Below, in pieces: positions 1-55,795 of a DNA stretch of 55,795 nucleotides (positions are counted from its first letter, which is position 1; the number at the start of each line of letters is the position of its first letter). The stretch lies in the IMG/VR virus record IMGVR_UViG_3300029267_001302; one strand, written 5' to 3'. This DNA is from a virus. Position numbers and translations under genes: made by a program. The notes beneath the pieces were generated by a model. It was not told where the DNA came from. It searched no databases and worked only from the letters and a program-made list of their open reading frames with translations.

Positions 1-144
1 ACTCGTTCTTTTTCGATTGTTCTTTTTATTTTCCTGTGAACGGGATTTGATTAATTCCCGTAGGCGGGAAACGATTAATTCCCGTCAATGGGAATTTGGT
101 AGTTTCCGTTGATATAACGGCATATACATCTTTTTCGAATGACC
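1..144. repeat. Terminal redundancy, left copy (identical to 55652..55795)
   Basis: Bases 1-144 recur verbatim at 55652-55795, so the unique length is 55,651 bp. This is either a circular-assembly overlap or a short direct terminal repeat. Confidence 0.95.
41..112. promoter_or_regulatory. Three tandem imperfect palindromes (GGGAA-N-TTCCC type), candidate protein-binding sites
   Basis: cgggatttgattaattcccg (41-60) and cgggaaacgattaattcccg (65-84) are 24-nt-spaced copies of one 20-mer with CGGGA/TCCCG arms. tcaatgggaa..tttccgttga (85-112) is a third, looser palindrome that overlaps the stop of ORF 85..489. Confidence 0.6.
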
Positions 145-489
145 ATGCCACGGTACTCTTTTCGTAATCAATACGCCTTCTGACACGAGTATGTCGAATA
201 ATCCTTTAATGCGGTCGCCGTGAATGCCAGTATCTTCGCGTATTTGTTTAACGCTTGGAAACGCCCACAAGTACGCTTCATTTTCGCTTTGACCGTTTGT
301 ATAAGCGTGTATATACATATATAGCGTCAAGCAATCTCGTGCCGTTTGCCCGTCATATTTCGCAGTTAGTTCCGGTAAAAGTTCGCGATATATCCAATGT
401 GGAATTGGCGAATAATGACCGTTGTCCAGCACCGCTTGTTTTTGACGCAGCGCCTCGCGTTGTTCATTCGTTAATTTTTCCTCGTTCAT
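85..489 (-). CDS. Winged-helix DNA-binding protein (replisome-organizer/DnaD-like candidate); paralogue-like to 29027..29470
   Basis: 134-aa ORF with the pattern LTLYMYIH..FPSVKQIREDTGI..IKGLFDILVSEGVL, typical of wHTH replication/organizer N-domains. It lies directly upstream of palindromes and iterons. The function is inferred. Confidence 0.45.
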   Translation of the reverse strand: MNEEKLTNEQREALRQKQAVLDNGHYSPIPHWIYRELLPELTAKYDGQTARDCLTLYMYIHAYTNGQSENEAYLWAFPSVKQIREDTGIHGDRIKGLFDILVSEGVLITKRVPWHGHSKKMYMPLYQRKLPNSH

Positions 490-1471: not shown

Positions 1472-1500
1472 ATTAAAAAAGCCCGCCAATTTGGCGAGCA
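1472..1500 (-). terminator. Rho-independent terminator (minus strand)
   Basis: The minus strand reads GCTCGCCAA-ATT-TTGGCGGGC followed by TTTTTTAATTT, downstream of the methylase gene. Confidence 0.75.
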
Positions 1501-2621: not shown

Positions 2622-3026
2622 TTACCGCTCCCCTTTTTTCGACTTGTACTTCCGATCCATATACGCATTCTCCGCCTTACTTCGCTTTCTTCGCGTCGGC
2701 TTTTCGTGCTTGCGCCCGTCACTAGCGACATATTCAAGCGGCGCCATGCCGACTTCGTGCCTTTCGATTTCCTCGCGCTGCCTTTCGCTGTGTATCGGAT
2801 GTTCGGTGTTGCGCGTTTTCCACGGCGTTGCGTCCGTCACCTCCTCGTACAAGCAAAGCGTTGCCAGCCGGTCAAGATGCGACGGATCAGGCCGACGACC
2901 AGTTGCGTCGATGTACTCGTCCGTCAGCCGTTCAATTGCGGCGAACCGGTCAGCGCGCGACAGTTTGCCCGCCTTTGTTTGCGTCCATAGATCGTTGATT
3001 CGTGCGTTAAATTGTTCGAAATTCAT
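2622..3026 (-). CDS. Hypothetical basic protein
   Basis: 134-aa ORF packed between the two methylase genes. It overlaps its upstream neighbour by 4 nt. Confidence 0.65.
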   Translation of the reverse strand: MNFEQFNARINDLWTQTKAGKLSRADRFAAIERLTDEYIDATGRRPDPSHLDRLATLCLYEEVTDATPWKTRNTEHPIHSERQREEIERHEVGMAPLEYVASDGRKHEKPTRRKRSKAENAYMDRKYKSKKGER

Positions 3027-17049: not shown

Positions 17050-17851
17050 TCACGCAATCATCCCTTTCTCTTTTCTCGCAAACCACTCGTCAACCGTCAT
17101 ACCTTCGCCCCACCTTAGCGACAACTCAATGTCCGTCTTGTTCGGCACGTTACCGAAACGATACGTATTAATCATCACATCCTCAAATTCCGCAATATCT
17201 TCGCGAGTAATAGTGTTTGGAACTAACAAAAGCACCTCGTCGTGTATAGTCGCGAGCAATCGCCAACCTTTTCGTTTACATAATTCATGTAGTCGCACGA
17301 TCGTTGTCTTCGTTTGAATTGCGCTTGTTCCTTGAATGACGGCATTTGGGCCTTGTCGCAATGCTCTCGACACATCTGCGTCATAACCAAACGTTCGCTT
17401 TTTCGCTTCTGGCAACCGCCGTTTTCGTTGTTGCTTATCCATCCAAACGAATCCATTCTTACGACAAAACGCCTGTGTTTCGTCAATCCAACGTTTAACG
17501 TTAGCGTGTTTTTTGAAAAATTTGTTGAGAAAGTCCTTCGCTTCTTCAACGGTGCAGCTAAGCTGTTGCGAAAGAGTTGTCGGCCCCGTTCCGTATAGCG
17601 CCGCAAGCACGCCTGTTTTCATTGCTTTTCGCTCCGGTGTGCCGTCGCCGCATTCTTCGTATGGCTTCCCGTAAAAATCAGATGCCATTGAAGCGTAAAC
17701 GTCGCGACCTTCGGCATAAGCGTTAAGCAATACTGGTTCTTGTGTAAAATAAGCAGCGCAACGAATCTCTTGTTGCGAAAAGTCTCCGCCCAAAATAACC
17801 CAACCTTCCGGTGCAACAAACAGTTTTCGAGCAGATTTCGGCTGATTTTGT
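17050..17851 (-). CDS. polA: DNA polymerase I family (family A), exon 2
   Basis: It begins (L)QNQPKSARKLFVAPEGWVILGGDFSQQEIR, which matches the Pol I NLQNIP...DYSQIELR motif A region, and continues through the palm and finger motifs to a stop at 17050. Confidence 0.85.
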
Positions 17852-18185
17852 CCAATTGTTATTAACCGTCGGCTCTTTATCCGACGCTCCGGAGGTTTCC
17901 CTCATTTTCATCGACCGGTCAATTCCGGTCCGGTGTAGACTATATCATCGACTGTCAAGGTAAACGAATCTAAAGCCAGCTGGCTTTTAATTTGACAGTC
18001 GCCCCGCTTTCGTGCCGCTTTACCGCCGTCGACTTTACGTTACGGCTCCATGCGGTAGTCGTTGCACCTTCCGTGGGTTTCCCCATCGGCTTGGCTCATG
18101 GTTGCCCTCGACTTTAATCGTTAGGGGTTTCCATGAATTAACGGGGTACTGCACACATAGTCGCCTATGTGCCGCCCTTTTCTAA
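17852..18185 (-). ncRNA. Group I self-splicing intron (ORF-less, 334 nt) in the DNA polymerase gene
   Basis: Exon 1 ends ..AACCU and the intron ends ..CAAUUGG (omega-G). Removal restores GNGVNL-QNQP in frame. It contains GACUA and GAUAUAGUC (the P7/J8-7 R and S consensus blocks) and several GNRA-capped hairpins (GCGA, GAAA x2). Confidence 0.8.
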
Positions 18186-19525
18186 AGGTTAACGCCATTA
18201 CCACCGCTCGAAAACCGCCCCGTCCGCGCGCCCATCGGATTGAATCGTGCGTGTAACCGTCCAGTATTCGGATGAATCAACTCTGGCAAAACGCTAATAT
18301 AAGTTGAATAAAGTTTGACGAGTTCTTTGTATTCTAGAAGTTCCGCAATTACCGGAAATTTATTTTTCAACGGTTTTAATACTTTCTTTGCATCCGTTGA
18401 TTCAAGCGAATGACCAACGATCTTTTCGAGCGCAGGCTTCAATTGTGCCGGACTGTTTAGATTTATGTCGCCTAGTTTCGATTTCAGCGACCGTTCCTTT
18501 TCCTCAATGTCACGCATCATTTCATTGCCATACTTTTTCGCATAGTCAACGTCAATAAGAAAGCCTGTCTGCTCCATGTCAACAATCGCGTCAAGCAACG
18601 GAACCTCAACCGTTTCGTAATAACGCAACATATTCGGAAATTTCGCCATATGATGACGTTGAAACTCATACAAACGCCATGTCAAATGAGTGTCTTTCGC
18701 CGCGTAAACAAGCGCAACATCTAACGGTATTTCTGCGAATTTAGCGTTTTTACCAAATAGTTCATCGAAAGTGTCCGACGGTTCACGTAAATATTTCGTT
18801 GCTAAATTTTTTAAGGCAAACGACGGTTCGTTTTCGTTCAGCATCGACATTGCTGTTTGTGTATCCCATCGCAAGCCCTGCACGCGAATTCCGTGCCGAA
18901 TAAACATATGAATATCGAAAATGGCGTTATGAAGCACTTTGCCAATCGTTGCGCTTTCGAGATACTCACACAAACCTTCGAGTACATATTCACGATCAAG
19001 CTGCTCGCCTTGTGTATGTCCAATCGGAATATAAACGTGTTTGTCTGCGTTCGGAAGTGTAATAGAAATACCGACTATTTCATCAGCGAAATGGTCAACG
19101 CCTGTTGTTTCGGTATCAAGCGCAATGATCGGTTCGTTCGTCAATTCGTCTAATAACGCTTGAAACTGCTCATCAGTCGTTATCAATTTGTAGTTACTCG
19201 GCGTTTCTTCAACCATGCGCCGTAACGTTTCTTCGCGCTTTCGTTCCTGCAAATCTTGCCACAAGCGAAGTGCCTCCGCTTTGCTAAACGCTTTAGGTCG
19301 ACCGGACTTCGTTACACAATCTTGCGGGTTACGACCGATCAAGCCGGCGTCCATCGCTTCTTTAACTTCCGTTAATTTCCTCCGGTCAGATTCAGTCAAT
19401 TTCATTACGAAAATCCGCCGCCAAGCGTCAGCGAGCGATTCGCTCGCCACGTTTCGTCGCTCATTCGCTTGACGTGCGCGTTCAGTTGCGTTAGAATCGA
19501 TTTTAAGCGAAAGTTTCAAATTCAA
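18186..19525 (-). CDS. polA: DNA polymerase I family, exon 1 (3'-5' exonuclease domain plus N-terminal polymerase domain)
   Basis: Exo motifs IIALDTETTG, HNAIFDIHM and YAAKDTHL. The exon ends RTGRFSSGGNGVN-L. The probable start is TTG 19525, which lies 9 nt after AAGGAG and overlaps the upstream stop; the track start is 19534. Confidence 0.85.
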
Positions 19526-19683
19526 CGCAACCAACTCCTTTTGTATTCGTCAACAAACGTTTCGTGAAACCATTCTTCGAAACATGATTCATCGCAAAAA
19601 TATTGCTCGGAGAATCGGTCGTAAATGGCGAGTGTGTCGTCTAGTATTACGCCGCACACGACACACTCTACGCCGTCAGTCAA
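19522..19683 (-). CDS. Small TRASH/MYM-type zinc-finger-like protein (about 53 aa)
   Basis: Absent from the ORF track. The cysteine spacing is C-x2-C-x19-C-x3-C (ECVVCG...YFCDESC). Its stop overlaps the polymerase TTG start (TTGA). The start codon is uncertain (TTG 19683, TTG 19689 or GTG 19692). Confidence 0.45.
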   Translation of the reverse strand: MTDGVECVVCGVILDDTLAIYDRFSEQYFCDESCFEEWFHETFVDEYKRSWLR

Positions 19684-22956: not shown

Positions 22957-23559
22957 TTACGCCAACCGTCTCTGACATTCGATTCGAAAGCGTTGGATGA
23001 ATTTGCGATGTCCATTTTCTGACGTTTCTGGGAAAGAACACGCCAATTCTTTCGCCAGTTGAAGATCATTCGTCTCGCCTTCACTCCACGCTTTCAGAAT
23101 CGCCAATCGCCGTGGGTCGCCTTTCGCCAAAAGGGCGACCTTTTCCATTAAACCTTGGTTACTTATAGTAATCGTTTCGACGTCCGCCAAAACGTCGACA
23201 ACTTCTAAGTATGCCTGATTTCCTTCGTGGTCAGTTAAAGGTTCGTCAAGTGAAACAACATCTGATAATTTCCGCTTTCTTCTTGCGAGGAAGTCGTATT
23301 TTTCTCGCATGATTATGTTCGTTACTAAACTTCTGAAACTTCCTTTGCGTCGATCAAAGTTCGCCAAAGCTTTTTTTATCTTAAGAAGGCATCTGCACTC
23401 AAATTCCGTTTGATTTTCTATTTTGTGCCAAATTTGTTCCGAGTGCCATTGTATTACTGGAAGAAACATTTTGCATAAAGTATTCAACGCTTCTTCACTT
23501 CCATCGCGAAACTCTTCGACCAAAATATTTAGTTTTTCTTCATTTACCAATATCATCAC
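22957..23559 (-). CDS. Sigma-70-family-like factor (phage sigma/ECF-like)
   Basis: 200 aa. FDRRKGSFRSLVTNIIMREKYDF resembles sigma region 2, and an HTH-like region follows at the C-terminus. It is the first gene after a conserved promoter-like element. The true start may be the second ATG (23556). Confidence 0.5.
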   Translation of the reverse strand: MMILVNEEKLNILVEEFRDGSEEALNTLCKMFLPVIQWHSEQIWHKIENQTEFECRCLLKIKKALANFDRRKGSFRSLVTNIIMREKYDFLARRKRKLSDVVSLDEPLTDHEGNQAYLEVVDVLADVETITISNQGLMEKVALLAKGDPRRLAILKAWSEGETNDLQLAKELACSFPETSENGHRKFIQRFRIECQRRLA

Positions 23560-23563
23560 TCCT

Positions 23564-23613
23564 TTTTAACCCTTACACTTTATTAACCAAAATTTTTTTG
23601 GATTTTGCGACAT
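23564..23613 (-). promoter_or_regulatory. Conserved about 50-nt upstream element, copy 1 (second copy at 30836..30886)
   Basis: TTTTAACCCTTACACTTTATTAACCAAAAT..TTGCGACAT aligns with TTTTAACCCCTACACTTTTAATAACCAAAAT..TTGCGACAT at 30836-30886. Each copy lies just upstream of a minus-strand operon start. Confidence 0.6.
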
Positions 23614-23730
23614 GTTTTTTGAAACTTTTTAAAAATTTATTTCGTAAAAATAGTGTAAAAGGTTTAATTGTAGTTAATCATATAATAAACTAAATGTTCC
23701 TATTTGGCAACATTTTTTGGAGGTATTTTT

Positions 23731-23931
23731 ATGATTTCTTACGAACCTCTATTCAAAACGTTAGAAGAGAAAAATTTAAAGCCGTCTGTTTTACGTAGCA
23801 AAGGAATTATTGACGGTAAAACAATCGCTAAGATGCGTAGAGGCGAAAGTGTTCGTCTTTCAACAATAGAAAGAATTTGTGCGTTTCTTGACGTGCCAAT
23901 CGAAAAGGTTGTCGAATACAGGCGTGAATAA
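23731..23931 (+). CDS. XRE/Cro-type HTH transcriptional regulator (66 aa)
   Basis: The ATG at 23731 follows GGAGG. MISYEPLFKTLEEKNLKPSVL..TIAKMRRGESVRLSTIERICAFLDVPIEKVVEY is the small HTH_26-like pattern. It is divergent from the sigma-like gene. Confidence 0.8.
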   Translation: MISYEPLFKTLEEKNLKPSVLRSKGIIDGKTIAKMRRGESVRLSTIERICAFLDVPIEKVVEYRRE

Positions 23932-28637: not shown

Positions 28638-28896
28638 TATTCGTCCACCTCCGTCACAACTTTTTCGCTCATTTTTCGTGCCCCTTTCACTTAAAATTAG
28701 CGTGAAATTACCGTGTTTTATACTTCCGAATAGAAAACCATTAGGTACGGATAAAATCGTCTGTATCGCGCCGATAGACGCCTTAAAACGTGTGTTAGTT
28801 GTTGACGCCTTCGATATAAAGCGTCGGCGGCGCGCGACAGTTTCACATTTTCCATCTTTGTAATACCTCTTATAAATCTTTTATTTATTAATCTTA

Positions 28897-29012
28897 TCTG
28901 CGACCATGTATGAGTTTACGAATACATGGCGCAAAGTATTTATTCTTTTTAAGTAATTCTTTTTAATATATTCTTTTTCATTAACGCTTCTGTAGATAAT
29001 AAACTACAGAAG
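28897..29012. promoter_or_regulatory. Origin-like cis module, copy A (hairpin, 3 x TTCTTTTT iterons, palindrome)
   Basis: The inverted repeat is GCGACCATGTAT (28900-28911) with ATACATGGCGC (28922-28932). AAAGTATTTA follows, then TTCTTTTT at 28943, 28957 and 28971 (14-nt period). A perfect 9-bp palindrome CTTCTGTAG/CTACAGAAG follows at 28987-29012. A homologous module lies at 55573-55678. Confidence 0.6.
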
Positions 29013-29026
29013 TAAAGATTGTATCT

Positions 29027-29470
29027 TCACGCAAGTAGTTTAATTCCTTTTTCCTTGCCTAGAAGCTTTCCGATATTTTCGTATTTTCGCGCAACTTCGG
29101 CCAGCTTCCGGTATATATCCGCCTCCCTCTCTCGAAACTTTTCGCGCTCTAACGGGTCGTGAACGATATAGATGATCTTATCCCTACCGCGACCGACCGG
29201 TTTGTGTTCGATCGTCACTAATTCGGCTGCTTCGAGTATTGCGTCGAGTATCGGCAATGTTGAGTACGATAGTTGAAACTTTTCGGTAACGGACGCTCGG
29301 CCTTTCCACGCTCGACCTTCATCATTGTTACGGTATCTTAACAAGTACAAATAGTACAGTGTCGCTTTGTCGCCGATGTACGGATGGTATAAGTCGAAAA
29401 TTTCGTGGAACATTAGCGAAAAGCCGGTTCGGGTCGTTCCTGTTCGTATATATGCGTTTTGTTGCGTCAT
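29027..29470 (-). CDS. Winged-helix DNA-binding protein (replication initiator/organizer candidate)
   Basis: 147 aa. KATLYYLYLLRY....ASVTEKFQLSYSTLPILDAILEAAELV parallels the pattern in ORF 85..489. It sits at the head of the replication module and directly upstream of cis module A. Confidence 0.45.
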   Translation of the reverse strand: MTQQNAYIRTGTTRTGFSLMFHEIFDLYHPYIGDKATLYYLYLLRYRNNDEGRAWKGRASVTEKFQLSYSTLPILDAILEAAELVTIEHKPVGRGRDKIIYIVHDPLEREKFREREADIYRKLAEVARKYENIGKLLGKEKGIKLLA

Positions 29471-30782: not shown

Positions 30783-30835
30783 TACGATTTCACCTCCGTA
30801 TGTTTTATTTTTACGAATGTAGATTATTGGGTAGT

Positions 30836-30886
30836 TTTAACCCCTACACTTTTAATAACCAAAATAATGAGGCAAATTGCGACATC
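30836..30886 (-). promoter_or_regulatory. Conserved about 50-nt upstream element, copy 2
   Basis: See 23564..23613. An extra TGCGACAT box lies at 30943-30950. Confidence 0.6.
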
Positions 30887-30954
30887 ATGATGTAAAATTT
30901 TTTCGCCTTTCACTTATGTAGGATACAGGCGTTTAAAAAAATGCGACATTTTTG

Positions 30955-30992
30955 CGAAAAAAAATAAAAAGCCCACGCATTTTTGCGTGAGC
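30955..30992 (-). terminator. Rho-independent terminator (minus strand)
   Basis: The minus strand reads GCTCACGC-AAAAA-GCGTGGGC followed by TTTTTATTTTTTTT, just after the stop of 31000..31431. Confidence 0.85.
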
Positions 30993-30999
30993 CTTTACG

Positions 31000-34915: not shown

Positions 34916-35071
34916 TACTTACCATCCCCTTCGCTTTTTTCGTTTTGAACAAAAGAAAAGAGAGCGAACGTTCTCCGTTCACTCTCCGTTTTCGTTCAAG
35001 CGATTTGTAATCGGTAAGGGCTTCGGATGCGCCCGATAAATTTGTTACGATTAGCAAAACGTCTCCTCCTT

Positions 35072-46140: not shown

Positions 46141-46172
46141 AATAAAGAAAAGACGGGCGATTGCCCGCCGTC
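46141..46172 (-). terminator. Hairpin plus T-run after the major tail gene (attenuating terminator)
   Basis: The minus strand reads GACGGCGGGC-AATC-GCCCGTC followed by TTTTCTTTATT. Confidence 0.6.
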
Positions 46173-55119: not shown

Positions 55120-55360
55120 ATGCGTTCTTTGCATAACGGTGAATTGAATATTCATCGCTAGTTTACATAAAAACCATTATGTTATATACATACGTTGCAT
55201 AAACGTTGATATAACGCCATTTCACAAAGTTATGCGAATTATCGTTTATGCACGATTTTATGCAAACGTTGATATGACGCTAGTTTGCGGCGTGTTTGCG
55301 AGTTTGTGAATCGGTTGCCGAATGCATAAATTTCGAATTCGAGATAACGCCAACCCCTCG
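55120..55360. repeat. Repeat-dense non-coding region upstream of terS (candidate pac/TerS-binding or late-promoter region)
   Basis: TGCATAAACGTTGATATAACGCC (55197-55219) and TGCAAACGTTGATATGACGC (55261-55280) are near-identical, with a partial third copy (55323-55351). There are six (T)TRTGCR boxes. GTTTGCG-GCGT-GTTTGCG-A-GTTTGTG occurs at about 55283-55310. Confidence 0.55.
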
Positions 55361-55572
55361 AGTTTTCGGCGGTCTGTCCGTCGTGAACGCATTGCCCGGT
55401 GAAATCGACCGTTCTCGTAACGGACAAACACGTGACTATTCCGATAAGTTTCATTATTATATTGGCGAATAGGCAGCGTGTTACATCGGCACGGAAAAGG
55501 CGGCCAAATGCGGCGCGCCTAACGTTTGTTTTTATCTATATACTTCTTCGAATAATCTTTCATATAATTTCT

Positions 55573-55763
55573 TCTGCGACCATACCATATATCGCATAGA
55601 CTAGTTCGCGACCATGTATTTAAACATGGGCGCAAAGTATTATTCTTTTTCACTCGTTCTTTTTCGATTGTTCTTTTTATTTTCCTGTGAACGGGATTTG
55701 ATTAATTCCCGTAGGCGGGAAACGATTAATTCCCGTCAATGGGAATTTGGTAGTTTCCGTTGA
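55573..55763. promoter_or_regulatory. Origin-like cis module, copy B (hairpin, 3 x TTCTTTTT iterons, GGGAA/TTCCC palindromes)
   Basis: TCTGCGACCAT lies at 55573. The inverted repeat is GCGACCATGT (55608-55617) with ACATGGGCGC (55624-55633). AAAGTATTA follows, then TTCTTTTT at 55643, 55657 and 55671 (14-nt period), then the three palindromes (equivalent to 41-112). It is homologous to 28897-28978. Confidence 0.6.
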
Positions 55764-55795
55764 TATAACGGCATATACATCTTTTTCGAATGACC
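55652..55795. repeat. Terminal redundancy, right copy (identical to 1..144)
   Basis: Verbatim repeat of bases 1-144. Confidence 0.95.

Follow-up and report, generated by a model that had tools for sequence, protein, structure and literature searches.

This report concerns a pair of intergenic modules in the IMG/VR virus record IMGVR_UViG_3300029267_001302, a stretch of 55,795 nucleotides (nt) that is called the window throughout. Read in gene direction, which is the minus strand of the window, each module lies downstream of its own small winged helix-turn-helix (wHTH) gene and upstream of the next gene block, and each consists of dyad repeats, three A-rich repeats at a 14-nt period, a short linker and a hairpin with a GC-rich foot. 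The duplication is confirmed, and it lies far beyond chance. The best-supported explanation of its role is that the two modules, here termed A and B, are iteron-type replication origins, each with its own initiator and both with the same unwinding and priming core. This reading would account for every part of the module and has a precedent in the two sites of phage SPP1; judged from sequence comparisons and predicted folds, its probability is roughly 0.45.

Elements of the two modules

The window represents a circularly closed genome of 55,651 bp from a temperate siphophage of Bacillus type (Bacillaceae), with nearly all genes on the minus strand. Owing to a terminal redundancy of 144 bp, module B wraps round the window ends. 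The elements of both modules are listed in gene direction, beginning with the wHTH gene (aa, amino acids; pI, isoelectric point; ORF, open reading frame).

29027..29470, minus strand: wHTH-A gene, taken from the ORF list, encoding a small winged-helix protein (147 aa, pI 9.3)
28979..29026, minus strand: dyad repeats of module A, with the inner palindrome CTTCTGTAG-N8-CTACAGAAG at 28988-29013
28933..28978, minus strand: core of module A, made up of a AAAAAGAA triplet with a 14-nt period and the linker TAAATACTTT
28943, 28957 and 28971, plus-strand reading: octamers TTCTTTTT of module A
28933-28942, plus-strand reading: linker of module A, AAAGTATTTA
28897..28932, minus strand: hairpin of module A, with a GCG/CGC foot, a single unpaired base and an upper stem of 8 bp, CCATGTAT/ATACATGG
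28897-28911 and 28922-28932: arms of the module A hairpin, TCTGCGACCATGTAT and ATACATGGCGC
28856..28896, minus strand: post-hairpin segment of module A, ATGGTCGCAGA..AAAGATTAT, shared with module B by alignment
28822..28839, minus strand: small GC-rich hairpin with a T-rich tail, downstream of module A
85..489, minus strand: wHTH-B gene (134 aa, pI 7.9, 15.7 kDa), its 3' end repeated at 55736-55795
55683..55759, minus strand: dyad repeats of module B, of GGGAAT-N6-ATTCCC type, identical to window 32-108
55693-55712 and 55717-55736: palindromes CGGGAWWYGATTAATTCCCG of module B
55741-55759: looser palindrome of module B
55634..55678, minus strand: core of module B, made up of a AAAAAGAA triplet with a 14-nt period and the linker TAATACTTT
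55643, 55657 and 55671, plus-strand reading: octamers TTCTTTTT of module B
55634-55642, plus-strand reading: linker of module B, AAAGTATTA
55606..55633, minus strand: hairpin of module B, with a GCG/CGC foot, a C/T mismatch and the upper stem CCATGT/ACATGG
55540..55605, minus strand: post-hairpin segment of module B, with a second copy of ATGGTCGCAGA (55575-55583) and the shared AAAGATTAT stretch
55493..55520, minus strand: GC-rich terminator-like hairpin followed by TTTTCC, between module B and the late genes
1-144 = 55652-55795, no strand: exact terminal redundancy of 144 bp, splitting module B between octamers 1 and 2

All of the elements that an earlier, sequence-only reading had listed for a duplicated hairpin and repeat module lie at the positions it gave. 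The extent it assigned to copy A, 28897-29012, is right in position and short at its end, as the palindrome reaches 29013, one base further. Its statement that copy B abuts the stop codon of the gene at 85..489 holds through the terminal redundancy. That redundancy is probably an assembly overlap and no evidence for physical genome ends, because a second public assembly (L120; 55,681 bp), which carries the same wHTH-B protein and flanking genes, closes the same circle at a different breakpoint. The length of L120 corresponds to the 55,651-bp unit plus a 30-base overlap, and module B is uninterrupted in it. True genome ends within module B were rejected on account of this closure of the circle elsewhere.

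A duplication confined to two sites

Across the whole window, the exact 9-mer GCGACCATG is restricted to the two hairpins and the triple octamer at a 14-nt period to the two modules; a search of the window with a 14-nt piece of the core, allowing up to three mismatches, gave no third core copy. An alignment of the two copies, which the sequence-only reading had proposed as a check, runs from the first octamer to the 3' side of the hairpin and resumes after it, through the ATGGTCGCAGA..AAAGATTAT segment. The upper stem of the module B hairpin is the same as that of module A. What the two modules do not share is the dyads: those of module A (CTAC/GTAG) and those of module B (GGGAAT/ATTCCC) are unrelated, and each type is confined to its own site, the exact GGGAATTAATC of the module B dyad occurring in the window only there. 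Scans of IMG/VR with the core pattern returned members of this family and chance AT-rich matches, and nothing else.

Conservation among related loci

Homologues of both wHTH proteins occur in metagenomes and in Bacillaceae genomes, as prophages in several genera (Robertmurraya, Cytobacillus, Niallia, Terribacillus, Peribacillus, Neobacillus, Brevibacillus and Thermoactinomyces). Robertmurraya andreesenii DSM 23948 and Cytobacillus solani FJAT-18043 are two cultured strains with such prophages. Flanking DNA was taken for 12 B-type and 30 A-type loci from IMG/VR and GTDB, along with Logan and ENA contigs, giving a comparison set of about 30 distinct modules (individual loci are cited by L numbers). 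The order of stop codon, two to four dyads, three repeats at a 14-nt period, linker and GC-footed hairpin is kept in nearly all of the distinct loci, down to 49% protein identity, so the module is conserved across the phage lineage, a point that the sequence-only reading had wanted checked. The B-type locus L083 is without a module. A-type modules always precede the loader, helicase and primase genes, and B-type modules are found 1-2.5 kb upstream of the terminase genes in those loci where a terminase was found.

Dyad sequence varies between phages together with the adjacent wHTH protein. Most A-type dyads are of the form CTAC-N6-GTAG, in two or three units with a period of about 22 bp, with TGTTCA..TGAACA in L103 and TACCCGTGGGTA in L096; B-type dyads are typically ATTCC(C/T)-N6-GGGAAT, in three units with a period of about 25 bp, with AGTACT..AGTGATACT in L082, L084 and L085 and ATACCG..CGGTAA in L086. 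Most module-bearing B-type relatives (L076, L078-L082, L084, L085 and L151, not L086 or L087) have an extra dyad copy some 110-130 nt downstream, inside a GC-clamped palindrome. The 14-nt repeats are AAAAAGAA in A-type modules and in module B of the window, and AAT/CAAGAAC in the other B-type modules; the conserved linker is TAAATAC(T/A)TT or AAAGATT. After the hairpin, motifs related to the module A segment (AAAGATTAT, TCGCGAAAG) recur among the relatives. Identities around module A were as follows.

Five close relatives: wHTH-A gene 86-91%; repeats and linker 46/46; hairpin 36/36; dyads 44-48/48
L046 and L102: wHTH-A gene 73%; repeats and linker 43-44/46; hairpin replaced (20/36); dyads 36-38/48

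The array of 14-nt repeats with its linker is the most conserved part of the locus, since it is identical at every position in the five close relatives while their downstream non-coding DNA is only 79-92% identical. No 50-bp window of the genome forms a less stable duplex than the array of module A, and the B-type relatives of module B have an AT-rich array.

These patterns change the roles that might be assigned to the repeats. The sequence-only reading took the TTCTTTTT repeats as the iterons, an assignment that the comparison does not support, given that they stay the most conserved part while the wHTH proteins diverge to about 50%. An unwinding element, or the site of a conserved factor, is more likely than a set of initiator iterons; the repeats fit an unwinding element better because they are not phage-specific and are the most conserved part of the locus. 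The palindromes, which had been treated as extras, are the likely sites of initiator specificity, because they change with the adjacent protein, as expected of an initiator and its sites.

The hairpin

Above the GCG/CGC foot and one unpaired or mismatched position, the hairpin has an upper stem of 4-8 bp that differs among phages, with 13 different upper stems among 19 hairpins. Cognate arms are Watson-Crick paired at 73 of 76 positions, with no G-T wobble at all; arms taken from different loci pair at 39%, and no such combination pairs fully. All 20 sequences that were folded adopt the common shape, with z-scores from about 0 to -6.7 (-5.4 for module A, against shuffles). What is conserved in the hairpin is its structure and not its sequence. 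Moreover, the absence of wobble pairs from the 76 stem positions suggests selection on a DNA-level palindrome rather than on an RNA-only structure. Loop length varies from 4 to 20 nt, which would not be expected of a site that a protein dimer binds at fixed spacing.

In two of the three genomes where both hairpins could be read, the A and B stems are nearly alike, in one case together with the loop. The matched stems are those of the window (CCATGT) and of a 49.6-kb contig with the pair L151/L152 (CAATAG-AAAAGCA vs CAATAAG-AAATGCA); in the third genome, with the pair L079/L093, the A and B hairpins differ. The sequences do not point clearly to either strand as the one that forms the hairpin. 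On the plus strand the internal mismatch is converted to a T-G pair in L076, L080, L109 and L151, and the outer extension of the hairpin includes G-T pairs on the gene strand in winA, winB, L107 and L115.

An intrinsic terminator was considered as the identity of the hairpin and rejected, as no run of T follows directly on either strand: the gene strand continues with AGATAAG or GAACTAG, and the other strand has AAAGTA before the T-rich repeats. The terminator scan called neither module hairpin, and there was no Rfam match at either module, even at permissive thresholds.

The winged-helix proteins

Neither wHTH protein of the window passes a Pfam threshold. Among the PHROGs, wHTH-A has a weak match to family 270, 'replication initiation protein' (E = 2.7e-3), and wHTH-B matches the replication-initiator families 428, 345 (O-like) and 270 with E-values from 1.6e-4 to 1.8e-3; for both proteins the matches fall on the N-terminal, DNA-binding part of those families. 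The domain WHD_DnaB (PF25888) appears in precomputed annotations of A-family homologues, several of which JGI has named after the Bacillus replication protein DnaB, and Pfam HTH_36 is present in 15 of 19 B-family members. Searches with Pfam, PHROGs and NCBIfam gave no match of either protein to sigma-70 region 4-like or Ltr families.

Neither protein has a significant sequence match to any solved structure, and fold comparison relied on confident AlphaFold2 models (pLDDT 84.5 for wHTH-A and 81 for wHTH-B). The best solved-structure match of wHTH-A in Foldseek is the N-terminal region of primosomal DnaB (5wtn, TM-score 0.61), with RepA (4pt7, 5kbj) also listed; the top matches of wHTH-B are the RepA_N N-terminal domain (4pql), a Rep-DNA complex (5kbj) and the DnaD N-terminal domain (2v79), with TM-scores of about 0.5. 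Weak as they are, these signals agree with one another, and both proteins look like the DNA-binding domains of initiators. The claim of an initiator-like gene next to each copy is supported to this extent, the predicted folds best matching the N-terminal domains of DnaD, primosomal DnaB and RepA_N proteins such as staphylococcal pSK41 RepA. Those proteins have, in addition, C-terminal domains that recruit primase or helicase-loading partners, which the wHTH proteins lack.

The two genes had also been called paralogous. No paralogy is detectable by BLASTP (E = 1.4); profile-profile comparison does bring out a relationship, with a probability of 62% and E = 7e-5 over 94 colinear columns, and the two proteins are, by these measures, only remote homologues. 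The wHTH-B family is small, with 58 clusters in 1.84 billion proteins, and nearly every member stands alone as a protein of 120-200 aa; in the longer ones no additional domain was informative, and no fusion reveals a function. No homologue of either protein was found in PLSDB plasmids or among 50,697 deposited phage genomes, SPP1 presumably being one of these.

In the relatives with integrase immediately upstream (L093, L096, L104, L106, L107 and L116), a strong terminator comes after the integrase gene and wHTH-A is the first gene beyond it. In the window, the stretch ahead of the DUF3102 gene, at 30783-30966 on the minus strand, has half-sites of CTAC/GTAG type (GTGTAGGGGTTAAAACTACCCAATAATCTACA) that resemble the module A dyads, as well as an AAAGTGT(G/A)(C/G)G(G/A) motif common to L093, L104 and L107, though not to L106 or L116. 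The half-sites might reflect autoregulation by wHTH-A; a significance check showed no enrichment of the full dyad sequence.

Position of the modules in the genome

Read in gene direction from module B, the genome begins with the small terminase gene (terS) and large terminase gene, followed by the portal, structural, holin and endolysin genes. Two plus-strand genes, the integrase gene, a lipoprotein gene and a strong terminator (30996..30967) come next, and then the DUF3102 gene, a gene for a 164-aa protein, wHTH-A (29470..29027) and module A. Beyond module A are three small genes and those for a DnaC-like loader, DnaB helicase and primase; an Xre-like gene on the plus strand, with a divergent promoter of canonical type, and a sigma-factor-like gene; and an intron-split DNA polymerase, a Cas4-like nuclease, RuvC and ribonucleotide reductase. 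The remainder consists of nucleotide-metabolism and methylase genes, three small genes and wHTH-B (489..85), the final gene ahead of the packaging block, after which the circle returns to module B.

The two-origin reading

On this reading, the winged-helix protein whose gene lies just upstream would bind the phage-specific dyads and the adjoining array of three A-rich repeats would melt. The GC-footed hairpin beside the array could then form on the exposed single strand, where it would act as an entry or priming signal for the phage helicase loader, DnaB-type helicase and primase. Each of these steps is suggested by the layout of the module and by homology, and the phage does encode the DnaC-like loader, the helicase and the primase. 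Module A, which follows wHTH-A and lies directly upstream of those genes, would be the main origin. Module B, at the border with the packaging genes, would either be another origin or, once bound by its initiator, act on replication forks late in infection, the action proposed for oriR of SPP1. The extra downstream dyad of most B-type relatives implies that the putative initiator sites flank the AT-rich core.

Among the 29 early-region proteins that were scanned there is no other initiator candidate, and DnaA boxes are not enriched, the single near-match lying in a module A dyad. Two other AT-rich intergenic regions (22.6-23.0 and 23.56-23.86 kb) were considered as origins and set aside; they have a divergent Xre-like gene with a canonical promoter, and no iteron array.

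Several observations weigh against the origin reading. All of the homology and fold signals are weak, with E-values of about 1e-2 to 1e-4, Foldseek E-values of about 1e-2 and TM-scores of 0.5-0.6, and the transcription-factor folds PadR and MarR are also among the matches, albeit with lower TM-scores. With 134-147 aa, both proteins are without the C-terminal, partner-recruiting domain of DnaD, RepA and lambda O. The array of module B in the window has G and C in its spacers and falls outside the 12 least stable windows, and the 14-nt repeats are kept in sequence, beyond mere AT-richness. GC skew is uninformative as an origin marker, falling steadily since nearly all genes share one strand. The match of A and B stems in two of three genomes would also fit an RNA site read by a single phage factor. 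Finally, the position of module B matches that of a Gram-positive late activator of about 15 kDa and its repeat-bearing promoter (PMC3753634), and a sigma-like protein of the phage, described below, could read non-canonical promoters.

A more specific design, rather unlikely, is a two-part origin in which an exchangeable specificity cassette, made up of a stand-alone winged-helix protein of initiator type and its own dyads, is joined to a shared, portable core of repeats, linker and hairpin for unwinding and priming. The resemblance of the core of module B in the window to the A-type core fits cores that are interchangeable between sites. Two mini-initiators, encoded by the first and the last early gene, would then fire two origins at different times, the one by the replication genes starting theta replication and the other starting or redirecting replication at the packaging border.

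Should the modules prove to be origins, a minimal initiator would consist of a DNA-binding domain alone, paired with a strictly conserved unwinding and priming core. The phage would be a second natural case with two origins, here with two separate initiators, and a late-region origin that controls the switch to concatemer synthesis would become a testable idea. Should they instead be promoters, as weighed below, they would define a new family of middle or late activators on an initiator fold, together with a type of promoter that carries a DNA hairpin. Under either reading, the split between variable specificity and conserved core gives testable predictions and a sequence signature for genome searches.

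Comparison with known origins

The general layout of repeats, an AT-rich element, a palindrome and an adjacent initiator is already known. The lambda origin and iteron plasmids (RK2 oriV, pSC101, P1 oriR) combine initiator repeats, AT-rich 13-14-mers, a GC-rich or palindromic element and an adjacent initiator gene, and the initiator-binding repeats of lambda each have dyad symmetry. The modules resemble these origins in their repeated dyads at about two helical turns, their AT-rich 14-mer array, their palindrome and the nearby initiator-like gene. They differ in that the putative initiator amounts to a winged-helix domain and lacks a C-terminal part for recruiting partners, the site is found downstream of the gene instead of within it, the sequence of the AT-rich repeats is strictly kept from phage to phage, and there are two modules with a protein each.

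In oriV of the IncQ plasmid RSF1010, iterons and an AT-rich segment are accompanied by two single-strand initiation (ssi) hairpins on opposite strands, and the plasmid has its own RepB'-type primase. The modules are similar in having repeats, an AT-rich segment and a hairpin whose conserved foot could be recognised by a priming enzyme encoded by the element itself; unlike RSF1010, they have one hairpin per module, and the phage primase is of DnaG/Toprim type.

The Bacillus phage SPP1 is a precedent for two sites in one phage genome. Its oriL and oriR both have repeats and an AT-rich unwinding element, one among the replication genes and the other in the late region (PMC6316719). Modules A and B are likewise two separated, similarly organised sites, one by the replication genes and one by the late region, and the comparison with the twin origins of SPP1 made in the sequence-only reading stands as far as the layout goes. 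The single initiator family that it named for SPP1 has no counterpart here. In SPP1 both sites are bound by gp38, and gene 38 contains oriL, whereas modules A and B each go with dyads and a protein of their own; the arrangement would not be that of one initiator at two origins, because the proteins are remote homologues with different dyads. Four features are new: the lineage; small proteins that resemble initiators and stand alone; a strictly conserved core of three repeats next to a footed hairpin; and the duplication of the module with two different specificity cassettes.

Promoters and terminators near the modules

Canonical sigma-A-like promoters precede the lipoprotein gene and the plus-strand genes, and another is found at the Xre/sigma-like switch, the last being TTGCCA-17-TATTAT at 23710..23682 on the minus strand. 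The promoter scan gave no sigma-A-like promoter in module A. In module B a 9/12 sigma-A match, TCGAAA-17-AATAAT, spans the second and third repeats, and a better one, GTAACA-17-TATAAT at 55484..55456, comes after the terminator-like hairpin at 55493-55520. No canonical sigma-A match is present in the likely early-promoter region at 30783-30966 (minus strand). The nearest strong terminator upstream of module A is the one at 30996..30967. Module A lies inside an operon and is hence not needed as a promoter, which would be redundant there because no terminator separates wHTH-A from the replication genes.

The sigma-factor-like protein mentioned above has 200 aa and is encoded at 23559..22957 on the minus strand. 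It matches PRK08295 (1.8e-8), SigI (2e-6) and the ECF superfamily (2e-4), matches that are consistent with one another and all below curated cut-offs. The region around it (22957-23931) has the look of a regulatory switch, with a 75-aa Xre/VanU-like gene on the plus strand (23704..23931), a divergent promoter and nearby inverted repeats.

Strong hairpins like those of intrinsic terminators also occur inside co-directional gene blocks, at 1499..1481, 34987..34959 and 46169..46152 on the minus strand; with terminators inside long blocks, read-through or antitermination would be needed to express the genes downstream.

Alternative explanations

The sequence-only reading had itself named transcription-unit boundaries as an alternative, and promoters are indeed a serious rival, given the late-activator position of copy B and the sigma-like protein. 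The modules would in that case be activator-dependent promoters for two long lytic gene blocks, a possibility that we regard as somewhat doubtful. The wHTH-A protein, made first from the early promoter, would switch on module A for the block of replication and nucleotide-metabolism genes, and wHTH-B, the product of the last early gene, would switch on module B for packaging, structural and lysis genes in the manner of Ltr and RinA. The A-rich repeats and linker would form the core promoter, perhaps read by the phage sigma-like factor encoded at 23559..22957, and the transcript would begin with the hairpin. Such a role agrees with the fact that both modules head a functional gene block and are oriented with its genes. 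In L080 and L082, moreover, the first late gene comes directly after the downstream dyad hairpin and leaves no space for another promoter. By our own count the nearest dyad centre is about 58 nt upstream of the hairpin foot, a workable position for an activator, and in a hand alignment all members have a weak -35/-10-like pattern, T(T/C)(A/G)A(A/C)A-16/17-AATAA(A/T), that ends about 7 nt before the foot. That pattern is no convincing sigma-A consensus, however: module A gives no match, and the -10-like hexamer mostly lacks the key final T. A hand check of the repeats against the sigma-H consensus spacing gave no fit either. The position of module B and the repeats that follow wHTH-B fit the criteria by which Ltr activators are defined (PMC3753634), and the size of wHTH-B (134 aa, 15.7 kDa) and its place as the last gene before terS are like those of Ltr, RinA and ArpU proteins; wHTH-A is not in such a position. 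Unlike those activators, the wHTH proteins have no sigma-70 region 4-like domain and no Ltr match, their best matches being replication-initiator domains, and the same core module, with no recognisable -10, is found upstream of the replication genes as well. A promoter in module A would be redundant within its operon, and between module B and the late genes intervene the terminator-like hairpin and the better promoter match at 55484..55456. Triple repeats at an exact 14-nt period and a wobble-free hairpin are, in addition, not features of known promoters.

Two further explanations address only part of the module or only one of its copies. The linker and hairpin could be an RNA site for processive antitermination by one phage factor, like the boxA and boxB of lambda nutL and nutR, which we consider improbable. 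Each genome has exactly two copies, both located near the beginning of a block longer than 20 kb; the hairpin comes after a conserved linear box, and its stem and loop differ among phages and are near-identical between A and B in two of three genomes; and the strong internal terminators on the minus strand (1499..1481, 34987..34959 and 46169..46152) lie within the long gene blocks. In lambda, nutR lies after cro, and module A similarly comes just after the first early gene. Against this, the dyads and the three 14-nt repeats, which are the most conserved part, would be left unexplained, and the hairpins of L079 and L093 differ between A and B. The stems also show no G-U pairs in 76 positions, which speaks against selection at the RNA level, no Rfam family matches, and no N-like arginine-rich protein was identified in the phage. 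The other explanation, which is very improbable, makes module B a packaging or genome-end signal bound by wHTH-B as a terminase accessory, with module A unrelated or vestigial. Only about 660 nt separate module B from the start of terS (54972) downstream of it, the terminal repeat of the window begins inside the module, and the cosB site of lambda offers an analogy in its three repeats bound by the winged-helix small terminase. The packaging reading loses its main support because the terminal repeat is most likely an assembly overlap, the circle being closed elsewhere in L120, so that the 144-bp repeat is no evidence of physical ends. Besides, module A has the same core far from any packaging gene, and a separate repeat array closer to terS (55130-55270) could itself be the packaging site. 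Of all these explanations, that of two origins is the one that covers the dyads, the repeats and the hairpin together.

Other features of the window and its relatives

Between module B and terS, at 55130-55275 on the minus strand, there is an array of GCATAA/TTATGC motifs in both orientations together with two copies of CATATCAACGTTT. It belongs to a mostly non-coding stretch of about 530 nt ahead of the small terminase gene and is a candidate packaging site; the 71-aa ORF called there is doubtful. Downstream of module A, the stretch at 28822..28839 with its small hairpin is taken as non-coding because the 45-codon ORF that overlaps it is disrupted in the relative L117.

In the Logan contig L151 (SRR21460705), a gene for a 139-aa protein of sigma-70 region 4/ECF type lies 1.2 kb upstream of wHTH-B and is a candidate late regulator separate from wHTH-B; the 134-aa protein encoded at 2622..3026 of the window is not similar to it. 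The same contig has a DNA methylase gene with Hint/intein domains, and its coordinates of interest are 1-434 and 840-1259.

No tRNA genes were found in a scan of the genome. The halves of the DNA polymerase gene (ORFs 19534..18182 and 17793..17050) are separated by a group I intron at 17915-18201 on the minus strand (Rfam RF00028, 72.7 bits, E = 1.4e-16). On the plus strand, a 148-aa protein encoded at 33462-33908 matches the C-terminal region of type I-C Cas8c/Csd1 (TIGR01863, 4e-14) over its first 100 residues and ends in an excisionase-type helix-turn-helix; the phage may thereby carry a protein that mimics a Cas subunit.

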